A stretch of 64,000 bases of DNA, taken from a phage. Below are positions 34,223 through 64,000 of this stretch, piece after piece. The position numbers and the translations under genes are program-made. The stretch lies in sequence record OZ346158.1; one strand, written 5' to 3'. The number at the start of each line of letters is the position of its first letter. Position 1 is the first letter of the stretch. A model generated the notes under the pieces. That model saw only the letters and a list, made by a program, of their open reading frames with translations. It did no database searches and was not told where the DNA came from.

Positions 34223-35467
34223 TCAGCAACCACAACTTCCGTAGTGCTTAACTCGCTCGATAACTTCCGCTTGCTTACCTTTATTGTAAGGACGGGAGTT
34301 AGGACTGGAAAGGTATCCAGACACACGTCGAATTACACTGATCGTTCCCTCTTCATGGTTTCCACACTCTGGGCATACAAAGCCTTTAGCTGTTGCACTG
34401 AACTCACCAGAGAAACCACACTTGAGACATTTATCCACAGGTTGGTTAATACCAAAATACATAATGTGTTTATACCCGAAGTCAACAAGAGCCTCTAAAG
34501 CATCCAGGTTGTTTTTCAGGTTAGGTGTTTCTACGTATCCGATGTTGCCACCAGAGGAGATCATAGCAAAACCTTCCTCATACTCCCACTTATCAAAAGG
34601 AGAGCTATTTATCCATACTGGCTGATGGAAACTGTTGGTGAGATATTCATGCTCGTGCTTCAACACTTCCGGATATTCACGATCCAGACAGGTTGCAGCT
34701 TTATAGCATAGACTCTCAGAAGGAGTGCCGTACAAGCTAAATGCTAGTCTACTTTCCTTCTTGTATCGCTCACAAGCATCTCTCATGTGCTGAAGGATTC
34801 CAAGAGCTAAAGCCTTGTCACCCTCTCTGCCCAAAATCTGACAGGTTTCATACACACCGATATACCCAATACTGATGGAAGCGTACCCGTCATAGAAGAG
34901 TTTATCAATACTCTCTTCAGGATCCAGGCGAGCAAGAGCGCCTTCACACCACATGATGGGGTTCTGCCCTGCCTTTGTTCCTTTTAGACGATTAACCCTT
35001 ACAAGGTGAGCCTCGTATGCAAGATCCAAGTATTCGTCAAGAACTGCAAAGAAATCAACACCTTCCGTCTTGGCTTTTGCCGCAATCATTGGCAGGTTAA
35101 GGCTAACAACGCCTAAGTTAAATCTGCCAAGGTATTTCTCCTCGCCTGTTTCCAAGTCATTGTATTTGCTAAGAAAACTCCTGCAACCCATGCTAGTTAC
35201 TTTGCCATCTGTCGAGCCTGTCACTTTTCTATTTAGTGGTACAGATACGAAGTCAGGATAGATACGTTCTGCACAGCATTCCAGAGCTAATCGTTTCAAA
35301 TCATAGTTAGGATCCCCAGGGTTCATGTTGACACCCTCTTCCAGGAAGAACAGCACTTTAGGGAACACAGGTGTGATACGTTCTTCACCAAGACCCATTT
35401 TGTGGACTTTCAGGTAGTTTTTGGTAATCATTCTACCAAAGACCGAGGTATCCAGTCCTAAACTCAA
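34223..35467 (-). CDS. nrdD: anaerobic ribonucleoside-triphosphate reductase, C-terminal exon
   Basis: C-terminal CxxC...CPECG zinc site and glycyl-radical motif RRVSGYL; exact 5' exon boundary not determined. Confidence 0.8.
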   Translation of the reverse strand: MSLGLDTSVFGRMITKNYLKVHKMGLGEERITPVFPKVLFFLEEGVNMNPGDPNYDLKRLALECCAERIYPDFVSVPLNRKVTGSTDGKVTSMGCRSFLSKYNDLETGEEKYLGRFNLGVVSLNLPMIAAKAKTEGVDFFAVLDEYLDLAYEAHLVRVNRLKGTKAGQNPIMWCEGALARLDPEESIDKLFYDGYASISIGYIGVYETCQILGREGDKALALGILQHMRDACERYKKESRLAFSLYGTPSESLCYKAATCLDREYPEVLKHEHEYLTNSFHQPVWINSSPFDKWEYEEGFAMISSGGNIGYVETPNLKNNLDALEALVDFGYKHIMYFGINQPVDKCLKCGFSGEFSATAKGFVCPECGNHEEGTISVIRRVSGYLSSPNSRPYNKGKQAEVIERVKHYGSCGC

Positions 35468-36282
35468 TGTGATGAATGGAGTCTGCTGTCTCCTCCCTGT
35501 GTTTCCACAGGGCCAGACTATCTCTTACTCTACTTCAATAAGATAATAACCCTTTATTGTGAGATGCTTACCTTCGGCATTTCCTTCGATAGCCCTATGA
35601 ACGTTACCTACGTTCAAATTTAAGGCTTTTGCACAGGCATAGAGTGAAGGATATTCACCAACCAAGGTTTTACCTTTGTATGCCTGCACTTTCCTATAGC
35701 ACTTACCTGGACAAAGTCCTGTTCGGAAAGCATGTCTCTTATTATCTTCCGGCAAAACCCACTCTAGGTTAGACGGATGATCATTCAATGTATTGCCATC
35801 TTTATGATTCACTTCCCAGTTTTCAGGGTCTACTGGGACATCTGGCAAACAATACAAGGCAACAACCCTTGAGGTTTGGATTCGAATCTTTTTGCCTTTG
35901 TGGTTGAAAGAGTACATATAACGGCGTTTAACATGCTTGTTACCTTTTCCATAACCTCCCCACAATATTGGGTGTAGCATTCCACGTTTTCCGTATACGT
36001 TTCCAACCTCATCAATCACATAGTTTGATTCTTCACCATTAAGAATGATCTTTTTCATAGAGCCTCTCCATTTCGAAGTTAGTATTTCAACTAACCCCTA
36101 CACTACTTGGTTCAGAAATGTTTGTCAAGCATCTCTGCCTTTCGTTAGTCGTTACAACCGTTCCAACTCCTGTAAGAACTAGTCACGGGATTGGCATAGC
36201 TTTCGCCTTAGCGTTCCCCGTTAGCCGGATTTACCGACCCCTCTTATGAGGTTAGGAGAGTTTTACAACGGCCAGTTTGTTA
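35468..36282 (-). mobile_element. Group I intron in nrdD (approximate bounds) carrying HNH endonuclease
   Basis: nrdD split into N- and C-terminal ORFs flanking an HNH ORF; S-like element agatagtctgg on - strand near 35480. Confidence 0.65.
35525..36058 (-). CDS. HNH homing endonuclease, intron-encoded
   Basis: NWEVNHKDGNTLNDHPSNLEWV HNH core. Confidence 0.85.
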   Translation of the reverse strand: MKKIILNGEESNYVIDEVGNVYGKRGMLHPILWGGYGKGNKHVKRRYMYSFNHKGKKIRIQTSRVVALYCLPDVPVDPENWEVNHKDGNTLNDHPSNLEWVLPEDNKRHAFRTGLCPGKCYRKVQAYKGKTLVGEYPSLYACAKALNLNVGNVHRAIEGNAEGKHLTIKGYYLIEVE

Positions 36283-37143
36283 ACCGTTGACAGAAGTTAA
36301 CGTATTGATTTGATAGAGCAAAGTCTGCATGCTGTCAAATACGTCTTTATCTGTCATTTGCATTGCAACAGTCTCAGCATCTGGCAACCAATGTTCCTGG
36401 CAAAATTTAAGGTTCTTCTCATAGGTCGCTTCAGCATACTGTGCCAGATAATGATCAATATGGCTCATAGTCTGACCACCATATTGAGCACTAGCTACCG
36501 CACTAGAGATTTGGCTAAGGATTGTTGTTGCAACCCCTATTGACTTCGGCTTACTGACATGGGCGTTACCAATGTTGAATCCGTTTTCCAACATATCTGG
36601 ATAATTTACCAAACAACAGTTTGTTAACGGACTGATCAAGTAGTCAAGATCATGCACATGGATGAATCCTTTATTGTGCTCTTCGGAGACACGGTCTGGC
36701 AGGATCTGTGTTGATGCAAGGTGTTTGCTAAGAATACCTGCAAGCAGGTCGCGATGAGTGTGTACATGATTAGTAGGCTTATTTGCGTTTTCTTTTGTAA
36801 ATTCATCACAAGTTCGATCCAAGAAGCCACTAATATCTGCAAGCAGTTTTCCACCTGCCTCTCTGTTATTATCTCTTGTCTGTCTATACTGGATGTATTC
36901 TCTGGCTGCACATTTTAAACCCATATCCATAAGAGCATCTTCAACAAGGATATGGATATTTTTTACAGAGATCGTGCACTGGTCGGTTGGTAGATTGTTA
37001 GCAACAACTTCATTAACCGCGCAGGCGATCCGGTAAGCTTCTTCTTCAGTATGTCCAGACTCAAGTAAGGCGGACTCTGCCGCCTTGATCACCTTAATTC
37101 CGTTATAGAACTCTTCTCTACCGTCCCGTTTTACAACTTTCAC
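36280..37143 (-). CDS. nrdD: anaerobic ribonucleoside-triphosphate reductase, N-terminal exon (ATP cone)
   Basis: ATP-cone start MKVVKRDGREEFYNGIKVIKA; ORF terminates at intron border. Confidence 0.8.
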   Translation of the reverse strand: MKVVKRDGREEFYNGIKVIKAAESALLESGHTEEEAYRIACAVNEVVANNLPTDQCTISVKNIHILVEDALMDMGLKCAAREYIQYRQTRDNNREAGGKLLADISGFLDRTCDEFTKENANKPTNHVHTHRDLLAGILSKHLASTQILPDRVSEEHNKGFIHVHDLDYLISPLTNCCLVNYPDMLENGFNIGNAHVSKPKSIGVATTILSQISSAVASAQYGGQTMSHIDHYLAQYAEATYEKNLKFCQEHWLPDAETVAMQMTDKDVFDSMQTLLYQINTLTSVNG

Positions 37144-60742: not shown

Positions 60743-60817
60743 GCCCTGTTAGCTTAGTGGATAAAGCAGCGGCCTTCTAAGCCGTTGACACTGGTTCGAG
60801 TCCAGTACGGGGTGCCA
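60743..60817 (+). tRNA. tRNA-Arg (anticodon UCU)
   Basis: Hand-folded cloverleaf: acceptor gccctgt/acggggt, anticodon loop cuUCUaa, T-loop ttcgagt, encoded CCA. Confidence 0.85.
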
Positions 60818-60821
60818 AATT

Positions 60822-60908
60822 GGGGAGTTATCCCGTAGAGGTAGCGGTGTAGACTGTAAATCTATTGTCATTGCGACTCGGGTGGTTCGACTCCACCACT
60901 CCCCACCA
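60822..60908 (+). tRNA. tRNA-Tyr (anticodon GUA), long variable arm
   Basis: Acceptor ggggagt/actcccc, anticodon loop ctGTAaa, T-loop ttcgact, CCA. Confidence 0.85.
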
Positions 60909-61022
60909 AATTTATATTTTTAGATGCATAAATAATACAGATAATGGCATTGATATTTATCGTCGTTTATACTAGTCACTAACTGCTCGAAAATCAGTGT
61001 CATTATCAGTATAATTTATAAA

Positions 61023-61113
61023 GGAGGGTAGGGAGCAATGGTGCTCAAGCGGTCTTGAAAACCGTCCCGTTGAGGATGACTCGATGATGGTTCGATTCCA
61101 TTACTCTCCGCCA
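61023..61113 (+). tRNA. tRNA-Ser (anticodon UGA), long variable arm
   Basis: Acceptor ggagggt/actctcc, anticodon loop ctTGAaa, T-loop ttcgatt, CCA. Confidence 0.8.
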
Positions 61114-61211
61114 CATTGTTGACCTTGTAATTAAGCGAAAGCCGGAAGCAGAACCGGATTATCAAATGTTACAGTCGTCATCGCCGACTAGCAACATGGT
61201 CAACATACTGA

Positions 61212-61308
61212 GCTAGGTAAGCCCTTTGGCAAGGGCGAGGATTTTTAATCCTGAAAATAGACGAGGTAGTCGTTGAATACATAGGTGGTTCGATTCCATC
61301 ACCTAGCA
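61212..61308 (+). tRNA. atypical tRNA-like gene (possible tRNA-Lys UUU with about 30-nt variable region)
   Basis: Perfect 7-bp acceptor gctaggt/acctagc, D-arm gccc..gggc, T-loop ttcgatt; anticodon arm imperfect; 97 nt. Confidence 0.4.
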
Positions 61309-61315
61309 CCTTTTT

Positions 61316-61388
61316 GCTGATGTAGCACAATCGGTAGTGCAATTGATTTGTAATCAATAGGTTGTAGGTTCAAGTCCTGCCATCAGCA
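61316..61388 (+). tRNA. tRNA-Thr (anticodon UGU)
   Basis: Acceptor gctgatg/catcagc, anticodon stem attga/tcaat, loop ttTGTaa, T-loop ttcaagt. Confidence 0.85.
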
Positions 61389-61392
61389 CCAA

Positions 61393-61467
61393 GGCCCTGT
61401 AGCTGGAAGGTTCAAGCAAGCGACTCATAATCGCCAGACGGTGGTTCAATTCCACCCAGGGCCACCA
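61393..61467 (+). tRNA. tRNA-Met/Ile2 (anticodon CAU)
   Basis: Acceptor ggccctg/cagggcc, anticodon loop ctCATaa, T-loop ttcaatt, CCA. Confidence 0.85.
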
Positions 61468-61478
61468 AATAGTAAATA

Positions 61479-61555
61479 CTCCGCGTAGCTCAGCTTGGTA
61501 GAGCGCCTGATTTGGGATCAGGAGGTCGAGTGTTCGAATCACTCCGTGGAGACCA
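61479..61555 (+). tRNA. tRNA-Pro (anticodon UGG)
   Basis: D-arm tagctcagcttggtagagc, anticodon loop ttTGGga, T-loop ttcgaat, CCA. Confidence 0.85.
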
Positions 61556-62375: not shown

Positions 62376-62659
62376 GAGTTGCTACACTGTTTATTGTGTG
62401 CTTGTTATTATGTGGGTGTGCAACCAGCGTTGAGAGAGAATACAAGATTGACCCTCCTGATGTAGGAAGGTTGATTGTTAAACCCCCGGAAGGTGCCATG
62501 AAACCACCTGCTAAAGCTATGCCTTTGAAGAAAGGTGCGCCAGATGCAGTGAATTCTGGCATTATGAGGGATAATAATCTGTCTTGTAGCAATGATAGAG
62601 CTAAATTGATCATTTTGCAAGACTATATTAGAACACTTTTTCCAAAGGAGAGAGGTTAA
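62372..62659 (+). CDS. o-spanin (Rz1-like outer-membrane lipoprotein)
   Basis: Lipobox LLLCGCA, Pro-rich mature region; start overlaps i-spanin stop. Confidence 0.65.
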   Translation: MRVATLFIVCLLLCGCATSVEREYKIDPPDVGRLIVKPPEGAMKPPAKAMPLKKGAPDAVNSGIMRDNNLSCSNDRAKLIILQDYIRTLFPKERG

Positions 62660-63084
62660 TGTCTAAGATTTACGGACCGTGTTCTGAAAAGCAGAAGATG
62701 ATCCTAGAAAACGATGCAGATATTTTGGTAATCGGCGGTGCCGCAGGGTCTGGCAAGTCGTTCCTCTTGCAATTGATGCCACTTAAAATTATTGATGACC
62801 CCCACAGCTCTGTGGTTATGTTCCGAAGAACAACCCCACAGTTGGAAGGTGAGGGTGGATTATGGCCTAAAGCAGTAGCTATTTATAGTGATCTGCCTGA
62901 AAACATTAAGCCAAAGTTTAGAGAGAAGGATCATAAGTTCATTTTTCCACGGTTTGATCCGAACACTGGCAAGTGGGATAGAAGCAAAAAGGGAGCTGTT
63001 GTAAAATACTGCCACATGGAGTATGTACAAGATAAGCTTAACCATCAGGGGCTTGAGTACACCATGGTTTGCTTCGATGAGGGT
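62659..63084 (+). CDS. terminase large subunit, exon 1 (ATPase N-terminus)
   Basis: Walker A GGAAGSGKS, Walker B MVCFDE then G-stop at intron border. Confidence 0.8.
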
Positions 63085-64000
63085 TAATTTGTAGCTCTCG
63101 TAAAACCTCCCTAATTGCGGGGAAATCTTTATTATTGACACCACCAACCTGTCATGGTAACATGACAGAGGCTTCGAAGAGAGATCGAAGGTATGGTAAC
63201 AGTGTGTTAATTTAGATAATCCGCAGCGAAGCATCCGAGAGGATGAACGTTCAACGACTAGTCGAAAGACGTAGAATCAAGCGATTCGAAACGGGAGGGT
63301 GAATGTGTAATACTAAGAAATGTATGGATTGCCAAAGAGTTCTACCTATTGATGATTTCTTTTTATCATCTAAGAGCAAGGATGGATACTCAGGTACATG
63401 CAAGGAATGCTATATGTACTACAGGAAGGGTGGATCTCGTAAAAACAAAAATATGGTTAAGAGAGATGATGCAGCATTGTTTATTCAAGACTTGCTGAAG
63501 AAAGGTGAACTTTTTGAATGCAAATCTTGTCATGAAAGTATGCTCGCTGATAGTTTTTACACAAAACGTGACTATGGTAAAGTATATCTGGTTACGAACA
63601 GGTGTAAGATGTGTGAAAAGTTTTATCAGATTGAGAAGAAATTTCACATAACAAAAGATGAATACTATCGTCTACTCTCAGATCAAGATCATAAGTGTGC
63701 CATTTGTAGAATATCCCTTGATGAGTATAGGACGCAAGGGTATAGAGATTTCTTTTGTGTTGATCATGACCATAAAACTGGTGCTGTAAGAGGGTTGCTT
63801 TGTGATAAATGCAACAGAGCTTTAGGTTTCTTCCAAGAGGATGAGGAAACTATTCTTAGAGCGGCAGAGTATTTACACATTCATAAGATATAGTCTGGTC
63901 TGCATGGAGACATGCAGCTGCCTGAAAATGGCGGGGCAAGACTAGCGACCTTGCCCGAACATAAACGACACAATTCGAATGGGAGCAGATAGACTACCTG
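63085..64000 (+). mobile_element. Group I intron in terminase large subunit gene (3' end beyond window)
   Basis: P-like aattgcgggga (63106), Q-like aatccgcagc (63220), R-like gttcaacgactagtcg (63250); contains endonuclease ORF; shares the 15-mer taatccgcagcgaag with the polymerase intron. Confidence 0.7.
63303..63893 (+). CDS. intron-encoded endonuclease (Endo VII / HNH-like)
   Basis: Zinc fingers CMDCQ..C and CVDHDHKTGAVRGLLCDKCN core. Confidence 0.8.
   Translation: MCNTKKCMDCQRVLPIDDFFLSSKSKDGYSGTCKECYMYYRKGGSRKNKNMVKRDDAALFIQDLLKKGELFECKSCHESMLADSFYTKRDYGKVYLVTNRCKMCEKFYQIEKKFHITKDEYYRLLSDQDHKCAICRISLDEYRTQGYRDFFCVDHDHKTGAVRGLLCDKCNRALGFFQEDEETILRAAEYLHIHKI

Follow-up and report, generated by a model that had tools for sequence, protein, structure and literature searches.

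A predicted group I intron carrying an HNH endonuclease gene in the anaerobic ribonucleotide reductase gene nrdD of an rV5-like coliphage

The nrdD locus and its insertion

The stretch of DNA analysed here, which we call the window, comprises 64,000 nucleotides of sequence record OZ346158.1 and derives from an rV5-like Vequintavirus coliphage. Its nrdD gene lies on the minus strand and is split by an insertion of 797 nt. A preliminary description of the window had listed an ATP-cone half, an HNH open reading frame (ORF) and a glycyl-radical half as separate ORFs, and all three are found, each on the minus strand. The N-terminal ORF (37143..36280, 287 aa) matches the Pfam ATP-cone family (4.4e-14) and positions 1-154 of the NRDD profile, and the C-terminal ORF (35467..34223) matches NRDD positions 156-562 (1.8e-111) together with Gly_radical (3e-23). 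The two halves adjoin in the NRDD profile (154|156), with neither overlap nor loss.

Exon 1 (36283..37143, minus strand) encodes the ATP-cone and the first part of the NrdD core, and ends ...GUC AAC GGU. Its GTG start at 37143 overlaps the stop codon of the glutaredoxin gene, and both its start and its length are those of the rV5 gp108 annotation. Exon 2 (34223..35485, minus strand), identified by its Pfam match and its colinearity with T4 NrdD (1H78), begins CAG ACU CCA UUC, which encodes QTPF; its true start at 35485 is 18 nt upstream of the TTG chosen by the ORF finder. It carries the Cys loop MGCRSF, the zinc-ribbon cysteines (CxxC...CxxC) and the glycyl-radical motif RRVSGYL, so that with the ATP-cone and the NrdD barrel all features of a class III (anaerobic) ribonucleotide reductase (RNR) are found. 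The activase gene nrdG is intact and lies directly downstream.

The insertion falls between Gly287 (GGU) and Gln288, in codon phase 0. Without it, nrdD is 2124 nt long, equal to the uninterrupted rV5 gp108 and to the spliced gene of phage HeinrichReichert. The protein predicted from the joined exons aligns with T4 NrdD (1H78, E = 3e-167) without a gap over the junction (...NTLTSVNG|QTPFITLS...) and also matches 9D3X over its full length (3e-164).

The boundaries of the insertion follow from comparison with the uninterrupted allele of rV5 and from the reading frame. They place a candidate group I (IA2-like) intron at 35486..36282 on the minus strand (797 nt), which starts UAACAAACUG... and ends ...GGAGACAG, that is, in ...GAGACAG with the terminal guanosine at 35486, and from which the exons rejoin in frame. 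The span proposed in the preliminary description, 35468-36282, was right in place and wrong at its 3' edge, since exon 2 begins at 35485 and the insertion runs from 36282 to 35486. The predicted spliced junction reads ...GUCAACGGU|CAGACUCCA... (...AACGGU|CAGACU...), and the 400 nt around it give one continuous match, at 94-98.5%, in rV5, naswa, nimi, Murica and others. The intron-less site of rV5 reads ...GTCAACGGG|CAAACTCC..., against ...GGT|CAGACT... for the spliced window sequence; the codon before the site is GGU in both intron-bearing allele types and GGG in all five intron-less Vequintavirus alleles sampled; U is the base required at position -1.

The ORF within the insertion (35525..36058, minus strand, 177 aa), which lies in the loop of helix P8 in our model, is by family an I-HmuI-like HNH homing endonuclease, with nicking or homing activity predicted from its sequence. 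The protein matches Pfam HNH_3 above the cutoff (7.7e-7), the HNH endonuclease family phrog_59 (1e-25) and, over residues 8-160 against 8-159, I-HmuI in PDB entry 1U3E (E = 6.8e-4). Its conserved H...N...N residues (NHKDGN...SNLEWV...EDN) align with DHKDGN...TNLRWV...KIN of I-HmuI. For a DNA-binding module of NUMOD type at the C-terminus, the NUMOD-like profile of I-HmuI, PF22083, reaches 18.4 bits (1.6e-3) on this protein, below its cutoff of 27; the PDB alignment spans the region. A putative Shine-Dalgarno sequence, read as such from its sequence and spacing, lies 5-7 nt from the AUG, in the 3' strand of P3. A model that placed the ORF in the loop of P6, the arrangement seen in T4 td, was rejected in favour of P8.

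Predicted fold of the intron

The 5' half of the intron, from P1 to P7.2 and the 3' strand of P3 (P3'), occupies 36282..36064, upstream of the HNH ORF; all elements described here are on the minus strand. In P1, the last six exon bases, AACGGU (36283..36288), pair at six of six positions with the internal guide sequence GCCGUU of the helix model (36267..36272), with U36283 in a U·G pair at the 5' splice site; unconstrained folding recovers this helix, and four sequence-divergent relatives form it likewise. The 5' strand of P3, CUCUCC (36255..36260), pairs at six of six positions with GGAGAG (36064..36069), which is preceded by GAAAU and is also the putative Shine-Dalgarno sequence for HNH translation. 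Two hairpins lie between P3 and J3/4, a P3.1-like CCUC/GAGG and a P3.2-like GUCGG/CCGGC (36224..36251), and they are present in all five lineages compared; P3.1 is an optional group I pairing (PMC3873408).

J3/4 (UAA), P4 (ACGGGG/CCCGU), P5-P5a with a GAAA loop and P6 (UUCUUAC/GUUGGAA) follow at 36161..36223. The next stretch, 36145..36160, holds J6/7 and the 5' strand of P7 (CGGUUGUAAC-GACUAA), the classical 'R' element, whose sequence is also present in T4 td and sunY and whose GACUA pairs with UAGUC at 35520..35516. Between 36137 and 36077 are P7.1 (CAGAGAUG/CAUUUCUG, 36137..36113) and P7.2 (GGUUAGU/ACUAACU, 36096..36077), peripheral helices typical of subgroup IA, after which come GAAAU and P3'. 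The 5' strand of P8, CUCUAU (36057..36062), takes in the first two bases (A and U) of the start codon of the HNH ORF and pairs at six of six positions with GUAGAG (35533..35528), which encodes the final two residues of the HNH protein. That 3' strand, the HNH stop UAA, J8/7 and the 3' strand of P7 together make up 35515..35533, the best-matching part of the Rfam alignment discussed below. The 'S-like element' that the preliminary description had picked out by eye is real: it is AAGAGAUAGUCU at 35526..35515, i.e. J8/7 and the P7 3' strand, the 'S' element. The P9 hairpin (CCCUGUG-GAAA-CACAGGG), a 3' tail and the terminal G (35486) close the intron at 35486..35512.

The conserved group I core is thus complete, with the P3-P8 and P4-P6 domains, a P7 pseudoknot with the J8/7 consensus, and P9. 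Unconstrained folding of the ORF-less form of the intron found in relatives, and of the window intron without its P8 loop, returns every helix except the pseudoknot (P1, P3, the two hairpins, P4-P6, P7.1, P7.2, P8 and P9), and the ORF-less intron folds with z = -4.59 against 200 shuffles. The weak points of the fold are one mismatch in P6, a P7 of just 5 bp, and a P10 with exon 2 of at most 3 bp.

Covariation was assessed in five relatives, which represent only about four independent lineages and of which three had their ORF-containing loops trimmed by hand. The helices were scored directly; MAFFT alignments of the introns scrambled the variable ones. A simple string search misplaced short motifs in some relatives (P3.1 in S4-2 and L010, P7.1 in HeinrichReichert and L011, the 5' strands of P7.2 and P8 in HeinrichReichert) and two bulged helices (P7.2 of S4-2 and P9 of L010), and the chance values for P3 come from a separate control. 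P3 is fully compensated in the five lineages, with a different sequence in each (chance 0.8-3.3% per lineage), and keeps its position between GAAR and P8. P3.2 is compensated in each of the five at 5-9 bp, and P8 and P9 are compensated too.

The P7 helix (GACUA/UAGUC), J8/7 and the P4-P5 core are near-identical to those of the self-splicing T4 td and nrdD (sunY) introns, and 50 nt of the P4-P6 region are 88% identical to a Bacillus phage intron. In both T4 introns, as in the window, P7.1 and P7.2 lie between P7 and P3', and it is by this P7.1/P7.2 resemblance alone that we call the intron IA2-like, of the T4 td/sunY type. Two other placements of P3 were tried. A P3' directly after P7 was dropped, given that the Rfam-aligned T4 sunY sequence and the td sequence place P7.1 and P7.2 between the two. 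The 3' strand of P3.2, used as P3 in Rfam's alignment of HeinrichReichert, was rejected: it leaves mismatches in that phage and, by eye, forms no more than 3 bp in the window, whereas the upstream strand shows full compensation in each of the five lineages.

The preliminary description had expected group I structure on this strand, and the covariance-model search bore this out in part: the RF00028 match has the expected strand and position, yet scores 27.8 bits, below the Rfam gathering score of 50 (E = 1e-4 locally, 0.0047 over the whole window). At the gathering threshold, Rfam reports no intron anywhere in the window, and the match appears in a permissive E-value mode only. The same model aligns the ORF-less HeinrichReichert intron end to end at 29.8 bits and, as a control, gives the T4 nrdD intron 105.3 bits. 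We attribute the sub-threshold score to the 534-nt ORF in P8, the two extra hairpins and the long P7.1. Rfam's own alignment of the window match forces P1-P6 into the HNH coding sequence and takes GGGCUA at about 35590 as P7; it was rejected because the ORF-less relative and the T4 introns place the 5' half upstream of the ORF.

The nrdD intron had been described as the third in the window, which fits two further sub-threshold RF00028 matches, at 1434-2235 and 63075-63917. At its curated threshold the group I model misses all three candidates, so that intron calls in this group of phages need comparison with intron-less relatives.

Distribution, alternative readings and proposed mechanism

Of the records in the phage collection, about 80 are intron-less, 14 from sister phages carry a natural ORF-less form of 257 nt at this site, and about 28 carry the HNH form. 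Two indirect signs of mobility were observed, namely a patchy presence among near-identical phages and a clustering of synonymous changes at the junction, with 15 in the surrounding 100 nt of the ORF-less allele.

We consider it very probable that nrdD is a single gene interrupted by a mobile phage group I intron of IA2 type that contains an HNH gene and is predicted to be spliced. An intron with an HNH gene had been proposed for this locus, and the proposal is upheld on several sides: the uninterrupted nrdD of rV5 and of other close relatives matches the spliced junction base for base, the alignment with T4 NrdD is gapless, helices P1-P9 are present with covariation, the insertion ends in a G, and an ORF-less form exists.

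The strongest competing account is a genuinely split reductase, in which the HNH gene stands with or without a dead intron remnant and the two polypeptides assemble after translation, as for NrdA/mobE of Aeromonas phage Aeh1. Two separate nrdD coding sequences are indeed given in most GenBank records, a UAA directly follows exon 1, a TTG is available 18 nt into exon 2, and precedents exist in Aeh1 (PMC2988022) and in an unspliced HNH insertion of phage CB7 (PMC7344957). That TTG, however, reads TTA (Leu) in rV5, HeinrichReichert, FV3 and most other alleles, which leaves the C-terminal half without a conserved start codon. It also has no Shine-Dalgarno sequence 5-10 nt upstream, and the QTPFIT codons that precede it are in frame, conserved and part of an NGQTPF motif shared with T4 NrdD. 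A scan for sigma-70-type promoters found none within the insertion. The ORF-less insertion at the identical site in the 14 sister-phage records is not explicable by the arrival of a free-standing endonuclease gene, and a complete, covarying ribozyme core has been kept. We regard a split reductase as improbable.

It is less probable still that nrdD is a decaying pseudogene, inactivated by the insertion of a selfish element. The gene is interrupted, an anaerobic RNR is probably not needed under laboratory conditions, and the relative V18 has a 2-nt deficit at the junction, where no coding sequence is annotated. Against this, both halves are intact and full-length, and they differ from rV5 by 63 synonymous and 4 non-synonymous codons, distributed over both. 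The catalytic motifs (MGCRSF, the Zn-ribbon cysteines and RRVSGYL) are all kept, as is nrdG, and no frameshift or stop was seen in either half in the intron-bearing alleles examined. Removal as an intein, for which phage RNR genes are frequent hosts (PMC3653736), or translational bypass can be dismissed, as both are refuted by the reading frames (an in-frame UAA after exon 1 and many further stops in the nrdD frame), and the HNH ORF is a complete frame with a start and a stop codon of its own; no intein domains were found.

If the insertion is a spliced group I intron, AACGGU would pair with the guide GCCGUU in the pre-mRNA, an external guanosine would attack after U36283, and the freed exon 1 would in turn attack behind the terminal G (35486), so that ...AAC GGU is ligated to CAG ACU.... 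The predicted product is a 707-aa NrdD with ATP-cone, catalytic barrel and glycyl-radical domain, which would be activated by the NrdG encoded downstream. Because the HNH start codon lies in P8 and the putative ribosome-binding site of the gene in the 3' strand of P3, a correctly folded intron should restrict HNH translation, a form of control suggested by the arrangement of the sequence. The HNH enzyme, for which we predict both activity and a target near the junction, would nick or cut the intron-less nrdD of co-infecting relatives near GGG|CAA, and repair from the intron-bearing copy would then spread the intron along with a short tract of flanking exon.

The value of this assignment lies mainly in annotation. 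Most public rV5-like genomes list two nrdD genes and an HNH gene at this locus, and the correct annotation would be a single 707-aa anaerobic reductase whose mRNA needs splicing. The locus also adds to the known cases in which homing elements target an RNR gene where it is most conserved.

A broader grouping can be put forward tentatively. A search of viral contigs with the exact 27-nt P4-P5 core pattern found only another vequintavirus, and a degenerate form of the pattern yielded two useful relatives. Together with related introns from a Bacillus phage and from two uncultured viral contigs (L007, L010, L011), the window intron could possibly make up one structurally coherent subclass among the IA2-like introns of phages, although we hold this to be somewhat less likely than the contrary. 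Its marks may be the two hairpins between P3 and J3/4 and the near-invariant P4-P5 core. Such a subclass may span the divide between phages of Gram-positive and Gram-negative hosts and different endonuclease genes may have entered it in separate events, an HNH gene in P8 here and HNH-like and GIY-YIG-like genes in P6 elsewhere. If so, it would fall systematically under the Rfam threshold (27-30 bits), which could explain the two-ORF annotation of the host genes in most GenBank records.

Comparison with known systems

The intron itself is already known, as public records of the BASEL collection annotate nrdD as a spliced gene. In these GenBank records nrdD is a joined coding sequence with a 'putative homing endonuclease' within it; EmilHeitz Bas49 (MZ501062) carries the HNH form and HeinrichReichert Bas58 (MZ501073) the ORF-less form. 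In BASEL Vequintavirus phages such as EmilHeitz, the DNA of the locus is 97% identical to the window, and the insertion site and HNH ORF are the same. The annotations differ in that the BASEL coding sequence starts at a later ATG and omits the ATP-cone, whereas the GTG start at 37143 in the window includes it. The BASEL intron boundaries were set by comparative genomics (PMC8594841), and our literature search found no published RNA structure or splicing experiment for the BASEL nrdD intron.

Certrevirus phage CB7 belongs to the same subfamily as the window phage, the Vequintavirinae, and likewise has HNH genes in introns of replication and nucleotide-metabolism genes. RT-PCR showed these introns to be spliced in terL, nrdA, nrdB and the gene for the DNA polymerase (PMC7344957). 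The likeness is one of description, and an interruption of CB7 nrdD is not reported. In the same phage, the mRNA was reported to retain one HNH-associated insertion, CB7_245 (PMC7344957), so that an intron-like context is no guarantee of splicing. In Aeh1, as here, an RNR is encoded in two ORFs around an HNH gene, nrdA/mobE (PMC2988022, PMC7344957). The Aeh1 locus has no ribozyme and its halves are translated separately, whereas the window has a group I core, an ORF-less variant and no conserved second start.

The DNA-polymerase intron of Bacillus phage SPO1, with I-HmuI (1U3E), is another phage group I intron with a small HNH enzyme (about 175 aa). I-HmuI is the only solved relative of the window HNH protein, and the two match end to end. 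The SPO1 ORF also lies in the P8 loop. SPO1 differs in host gene and in host phylum, and the two proteins share little similarity (E = 6.8e-4). I-HmuI is known to nick DNA, an activity that the window protein may share.

A further comparison is with the T4 nrdD (sunY) intron, and the preliminary description had drawn a parallel with the intron-containing nrdD of T-even phages. The parallel stands insofar as both are group I introns in the same gene, in the same conserved protein segment (...NTLFSSNGQTPF...). They are of the same class, with P7.1 and P7.2 between P7 and P3' and without P2 in either, and their 5' ends are alike (GCUCAU-GUAAAAU-CUGCC-UAAAA in T4, GCCGUU-GUAAAA-CUCUCC-UAA in the window). 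The sites differ, however. In T4 the Tyr180 codon is interrupted after its first base (phase 1), and the window intron is in phase 0 after Gly287, which corresponds to Gly190 of T4, so that the T4 site lies 32 nt upstream. The T4 ORF encodes the GIY-YIG enzyme I-TevII and is 3' of the core, whereas the window ORF encodes an HNH protein in the P8 loop; the two hairpins between P3 and J3/4 are found in the window intron and not in that of T4. Given the different site and phase and the different endonuclease family, we regard the window intron as an analogue rather than an orthologue of the T4 nrdD intron, and the parallel holds as analogy only. Independent intron insertions are known to cluster at conserved sites, and two unrelated introns 32 nt apart in nrdD fit that pattern.

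Boundaries of the nrdD insertion

Escherichia phages slur16, slur12 and nomo match the 3.1-kb nrdD region at 99% identity, and ~120 records of rV5-like Vequintavirus phages match it at 94-99%; its minus-strand gene order is nrdA, nrdB, glutaredoxin, nrdD, small ORF and nrdG. An ORF check and Pfam confirmed all three minus-strand ORFs that the preliminary description had placed at nrdD: an N-terminal ORF (37143..36280; ATP-cone, 4.4e-14; NRDD profile positions 1-154), a middle ORF (36058..35525; HNH_3, 7.7e-7) and a C-terminal nrdD frame (35485 to 34226; NRDD 156-562, 1.8e-111; Gly_radical, 3e-23). Because the NRDD profile was covered from 1 to 154 and then from 156 to 562, the interruption is clean, without overlap or loss. 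The C-terminal half was as described, except for its start at 35467, which is merely the first TTG usable by the ORF finder; the frame is open upstream of it, and QTPFIT is encoded from 35485.

In rV5, nrdD (gp108) is uninterrupted and 2124 nt long. Where rV5 reads GTC AAC GGG CAA ACT CCA, the window reads GTC AAC GGT, then 797 nt (36282..35486, minus strand), then CAG ACT CCA; the window CDS minus this insertion is likewise 2124 nt. A 400-nt spliced-junction query gave one-piece matches at 94-98.5% identity in rV5, naswa, nimi, Murica, DrSchubert and others. The spliced NrdD aligned to T4 NrdD (1H78; E = 3e-167) and to 9D3X (E = 3e-164), in both cases without a gap at NTLTSVNG/QTPFITLS. The last exon codon is GGU in both intron-bearing allele types and GGG in each of the five Vequintavirus alleles without the intron that were sampled. 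In Avunavirus, a distant intron-less allele has GGT at the same codon, so the U is required for the intron yet is no indicator of one by itself. We consider it very probable that the insertion is an ordinary mobile group I intron, already annotated, whose splicing we infer.

Group I architecture and intron relatives

A covariance-model search of the minus strand did match the Rfam group I intron RF00028 (27.8 bits in E-value mode; E = 1e-4 in a local search and 0.0047 over the whole window), as the preliminary description would predict, although the score stays below the gathering threshold (50), at which the Rfam search returned no match for the insertion. The T4 nrdD intron, our positive control, scored 105 bits. 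At the same site, an ORF-less insertion of 257 nt is present in 14 records, among them HeinrichReichert, and this form aligned to RF00028 end to end (29.8 bits).

A helix model was built by comparison with the T4 sunY and td introns. On the minus strand, it comprises P1 (36288-36283/36272-36267; AACGGU/GCCGUU, with a terminal U·G), P3 (36260-36255/36069-36064; CUCUCC/GGAGAG), two hairpins, one P3.1-like and one P3.2-like (36251-36224), J3/4, P4, P5-P5a and P6 (36223-36161; UAA; ACGGGG/CCCGU; GAAA loop; UUCUUAC/GUUGGAA), J6/7 with the P7 5' strand (36160-36145; CGGUUGUAAC-GACUAA), P7.1 and P7.2 (36137-36077; CAGAGAUG/CAUUUCUG; GGUUAGU/ACUAACU), P8 (36062-36057/35533-35528; CUCUAU/GUAGAG), J8/7 with the P7 3' strand (35526-35515; AAGAGAUAGUCU), P9 (35512-35495; CCCUGUG-GAAA-CACAGGG) and the intron terminal G (35486). 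Unconstrained minimum-free-energy folding of the ORF-less intron, and of the window intron after replacement of its P8 loop, recovered all helices except the pseudoknot, and the natural RNA folded 4.6 SD better than its own shuffles.

The layout and an almost invariant P4-P5 core, together with P3.1/P3.2-like hairpins, are shared with introns of Bacillus phage S4-2 (L007:2440-3160) and two uncultured viral contigs (L010:7300-8225; L011:4100-3030, minus strand). P3 is fully complementary in five of five lineages despite unrelated sequences (CUCUCC/GGAGAG, CUCUGC/GCAGGG, UCCGAUUG/CGGUUGGA, ACGCAUUG/UGGUGCGU and CUAUGUG/UGCAUAG), and its 3' strand lies between GAAR and P8 in every one; 0.8-3.3% of shuffles per lineage gave a full-length P3 complement by chance. 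P3.2, P8 and P9 are also compensated. Because the HeinrichReichert copy is related to that of the window, the number of independent lineages is about four rather than five. The comparison suggests a single scaffold entered by ORFs several times, in the coliphage intron and in L007, L010 and L011.

Endonuclease, alleles and alternative readings

The P8 loop houses a 177-aa HNH ORF with matches to HNH_3 and phrog_59 (1e-25). Its sole solved relative, I-HmuI of phage SPO1, matches it from end to end, with retention of the His/Asn/Asn motif residues. The P8 5' strand takes in the A and U of the ORF's AUG, the P8 3' strand consists of the last two sense codons, and the GGAGAGG 5' of the AUG is the P3 3' strand. 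On this model, the folded intron would conceal the ribosome-binding site. In L007, L010 and L011, the ORFs sit in the P6 loop and are different genes, which look by eye HNH-like (L010) and GIY-YIG-like (L011).

The serious rival is a reductase split into two subunits, as in Aeh1 NrdA; in the related phage CB7, moreover, an HNH insertion is reported to stay unspliced (PMC7344957). However, rV5, HeinrichReichert, FV3 and most other alleles have TTA in place of the TTG that starts the C-terminal ORF, neither a Shine-Dalgarno sequence 5-10 nt upstream of this TTG nor a sigma-70-type promoter within the insertion was found, and the QTPFIT codons, in frame on its 5' side, are conserved. Nor does the arrival of a free-standing endonuclease gene explain the ORF-less insertion. 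A pseudogene fits poorly with 63 synonymous against 4 non-synonymous codon differences from rV5, spread over both halves, and with catalytic motifs that are all intact. An intein is excluded because stop codons occur in the nrdD frame of the insertion.

HeinrichReichert has 15 substitutions, synonymous by inspection, in the 100 nt around the junction (window ~36330-36283 and 35485-35470), but mostly 0-3 per 100 nt elsewhere in nrdD, apart from two 3'-terminal bins with 16 and 11; this pattern resembles a co-conversion tract derived from a diverged donor. Its ORF-less intron is not a simple deletion derivative, because the P7.1-to-P8 segment differs from that of the window intron.

Phage V18 (NC_041937) has no intron at the 36283/35485 junction, yet its exon flanks are the distinctive ones that accompany the ORF-less intron, GGT included. 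It is two nt shorter precisely there (AACGGT--AACCCC), in a stretch without an annotated CDS; the cause may be an imprecise intron loss that frameshifted nrdD, or an assembly error. A second nrdD insertion, absent from the window, occurs in phita32 (L002:2375-3124), C2, JEP1 and nomine, where nrdD is in three pieces; it lies ~300 nt downstream of the window intron's site, with a 169-aa ORF and an RF00028 score of 35.3 bits.

Other candidate introns, public annotation and known systems

Two further group-I-like matches lie on the plus strand. The one at 1434-2235 (RF00028 38.9 bits, sub-threshold), between a DNA polymerase A-matching ORF (1-1446) and a continuing ORF (2262-2636), probably represents the polymerase intron named in the preliminary description. 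Within it, a 173-aa ORF (1569-2087) shares 48% identity over 48 aa with the nrdD-intron endonuclease in the HNH motif region. The other, at 63075-63917 (48.7 bits, slightly below the threshold of 50), is directly 3' of an ORF (62632-63084) that carries the N-terminal domain of a terminase large subunit, includes an ORF of 196 aa (63303-63890) in which an Endonuclease VII domain is recognised, and agrees with the terminase intron reported for rV5 (PMC3606486). That paper mentions introns solely for the terminase gene, which is consistent with rV5 nrdD being intron-less. At least six tRNA genes are clustered elsewhere in the window (60743-61552, plus strand), together with two weak tRNA-Sec-like matches (60822-60904 and 61023-61109).

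The nrdD element is already known from public records: in the BASEL genomes EmilHeitz and HeinrichReichert, nrdD is given as a joined CDS, and the BASEL paper set intron boundaries by comparison (PMC8594841); we found no description of the structure or splicing of this intron in the literature. Annotation is inconsistent: most GenBank records have two nrdD CDSs, and some begin the C-terminal piece at a GTG within P9. The BASEL joined CDS uses a later ATG (window 36930-37143 region), so the ATP-cone is lost, whereas the GTG at 37143, the rV5 gp108 start, includes it. About 20 'Campylobacter phage' records (MG0656xx, with C. jejuni as host) share 97-98% identity with these coliphages over nrdD, which suggests mislabelled hosts or contaminating coliphages.

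A survey of phage ribonucleotide reductase genes found nrdD to be split most often (PMC3653736). The closest well-studied analogue is the T4 nrdD (sunY) intron, and the T-even parallel drawn in the preliminary description holds for gene, conserved segment and intron type. The two are nevertheless not the same element: the T4 intron is inserted 32 nt upstream of the window's site and interrupts the Tyr180 codon after its first base (phase 1), the enzyme that it encodes downstream of its core is I-TevII, of the GIY-YIG family, and the extra hairpins are missing from it.
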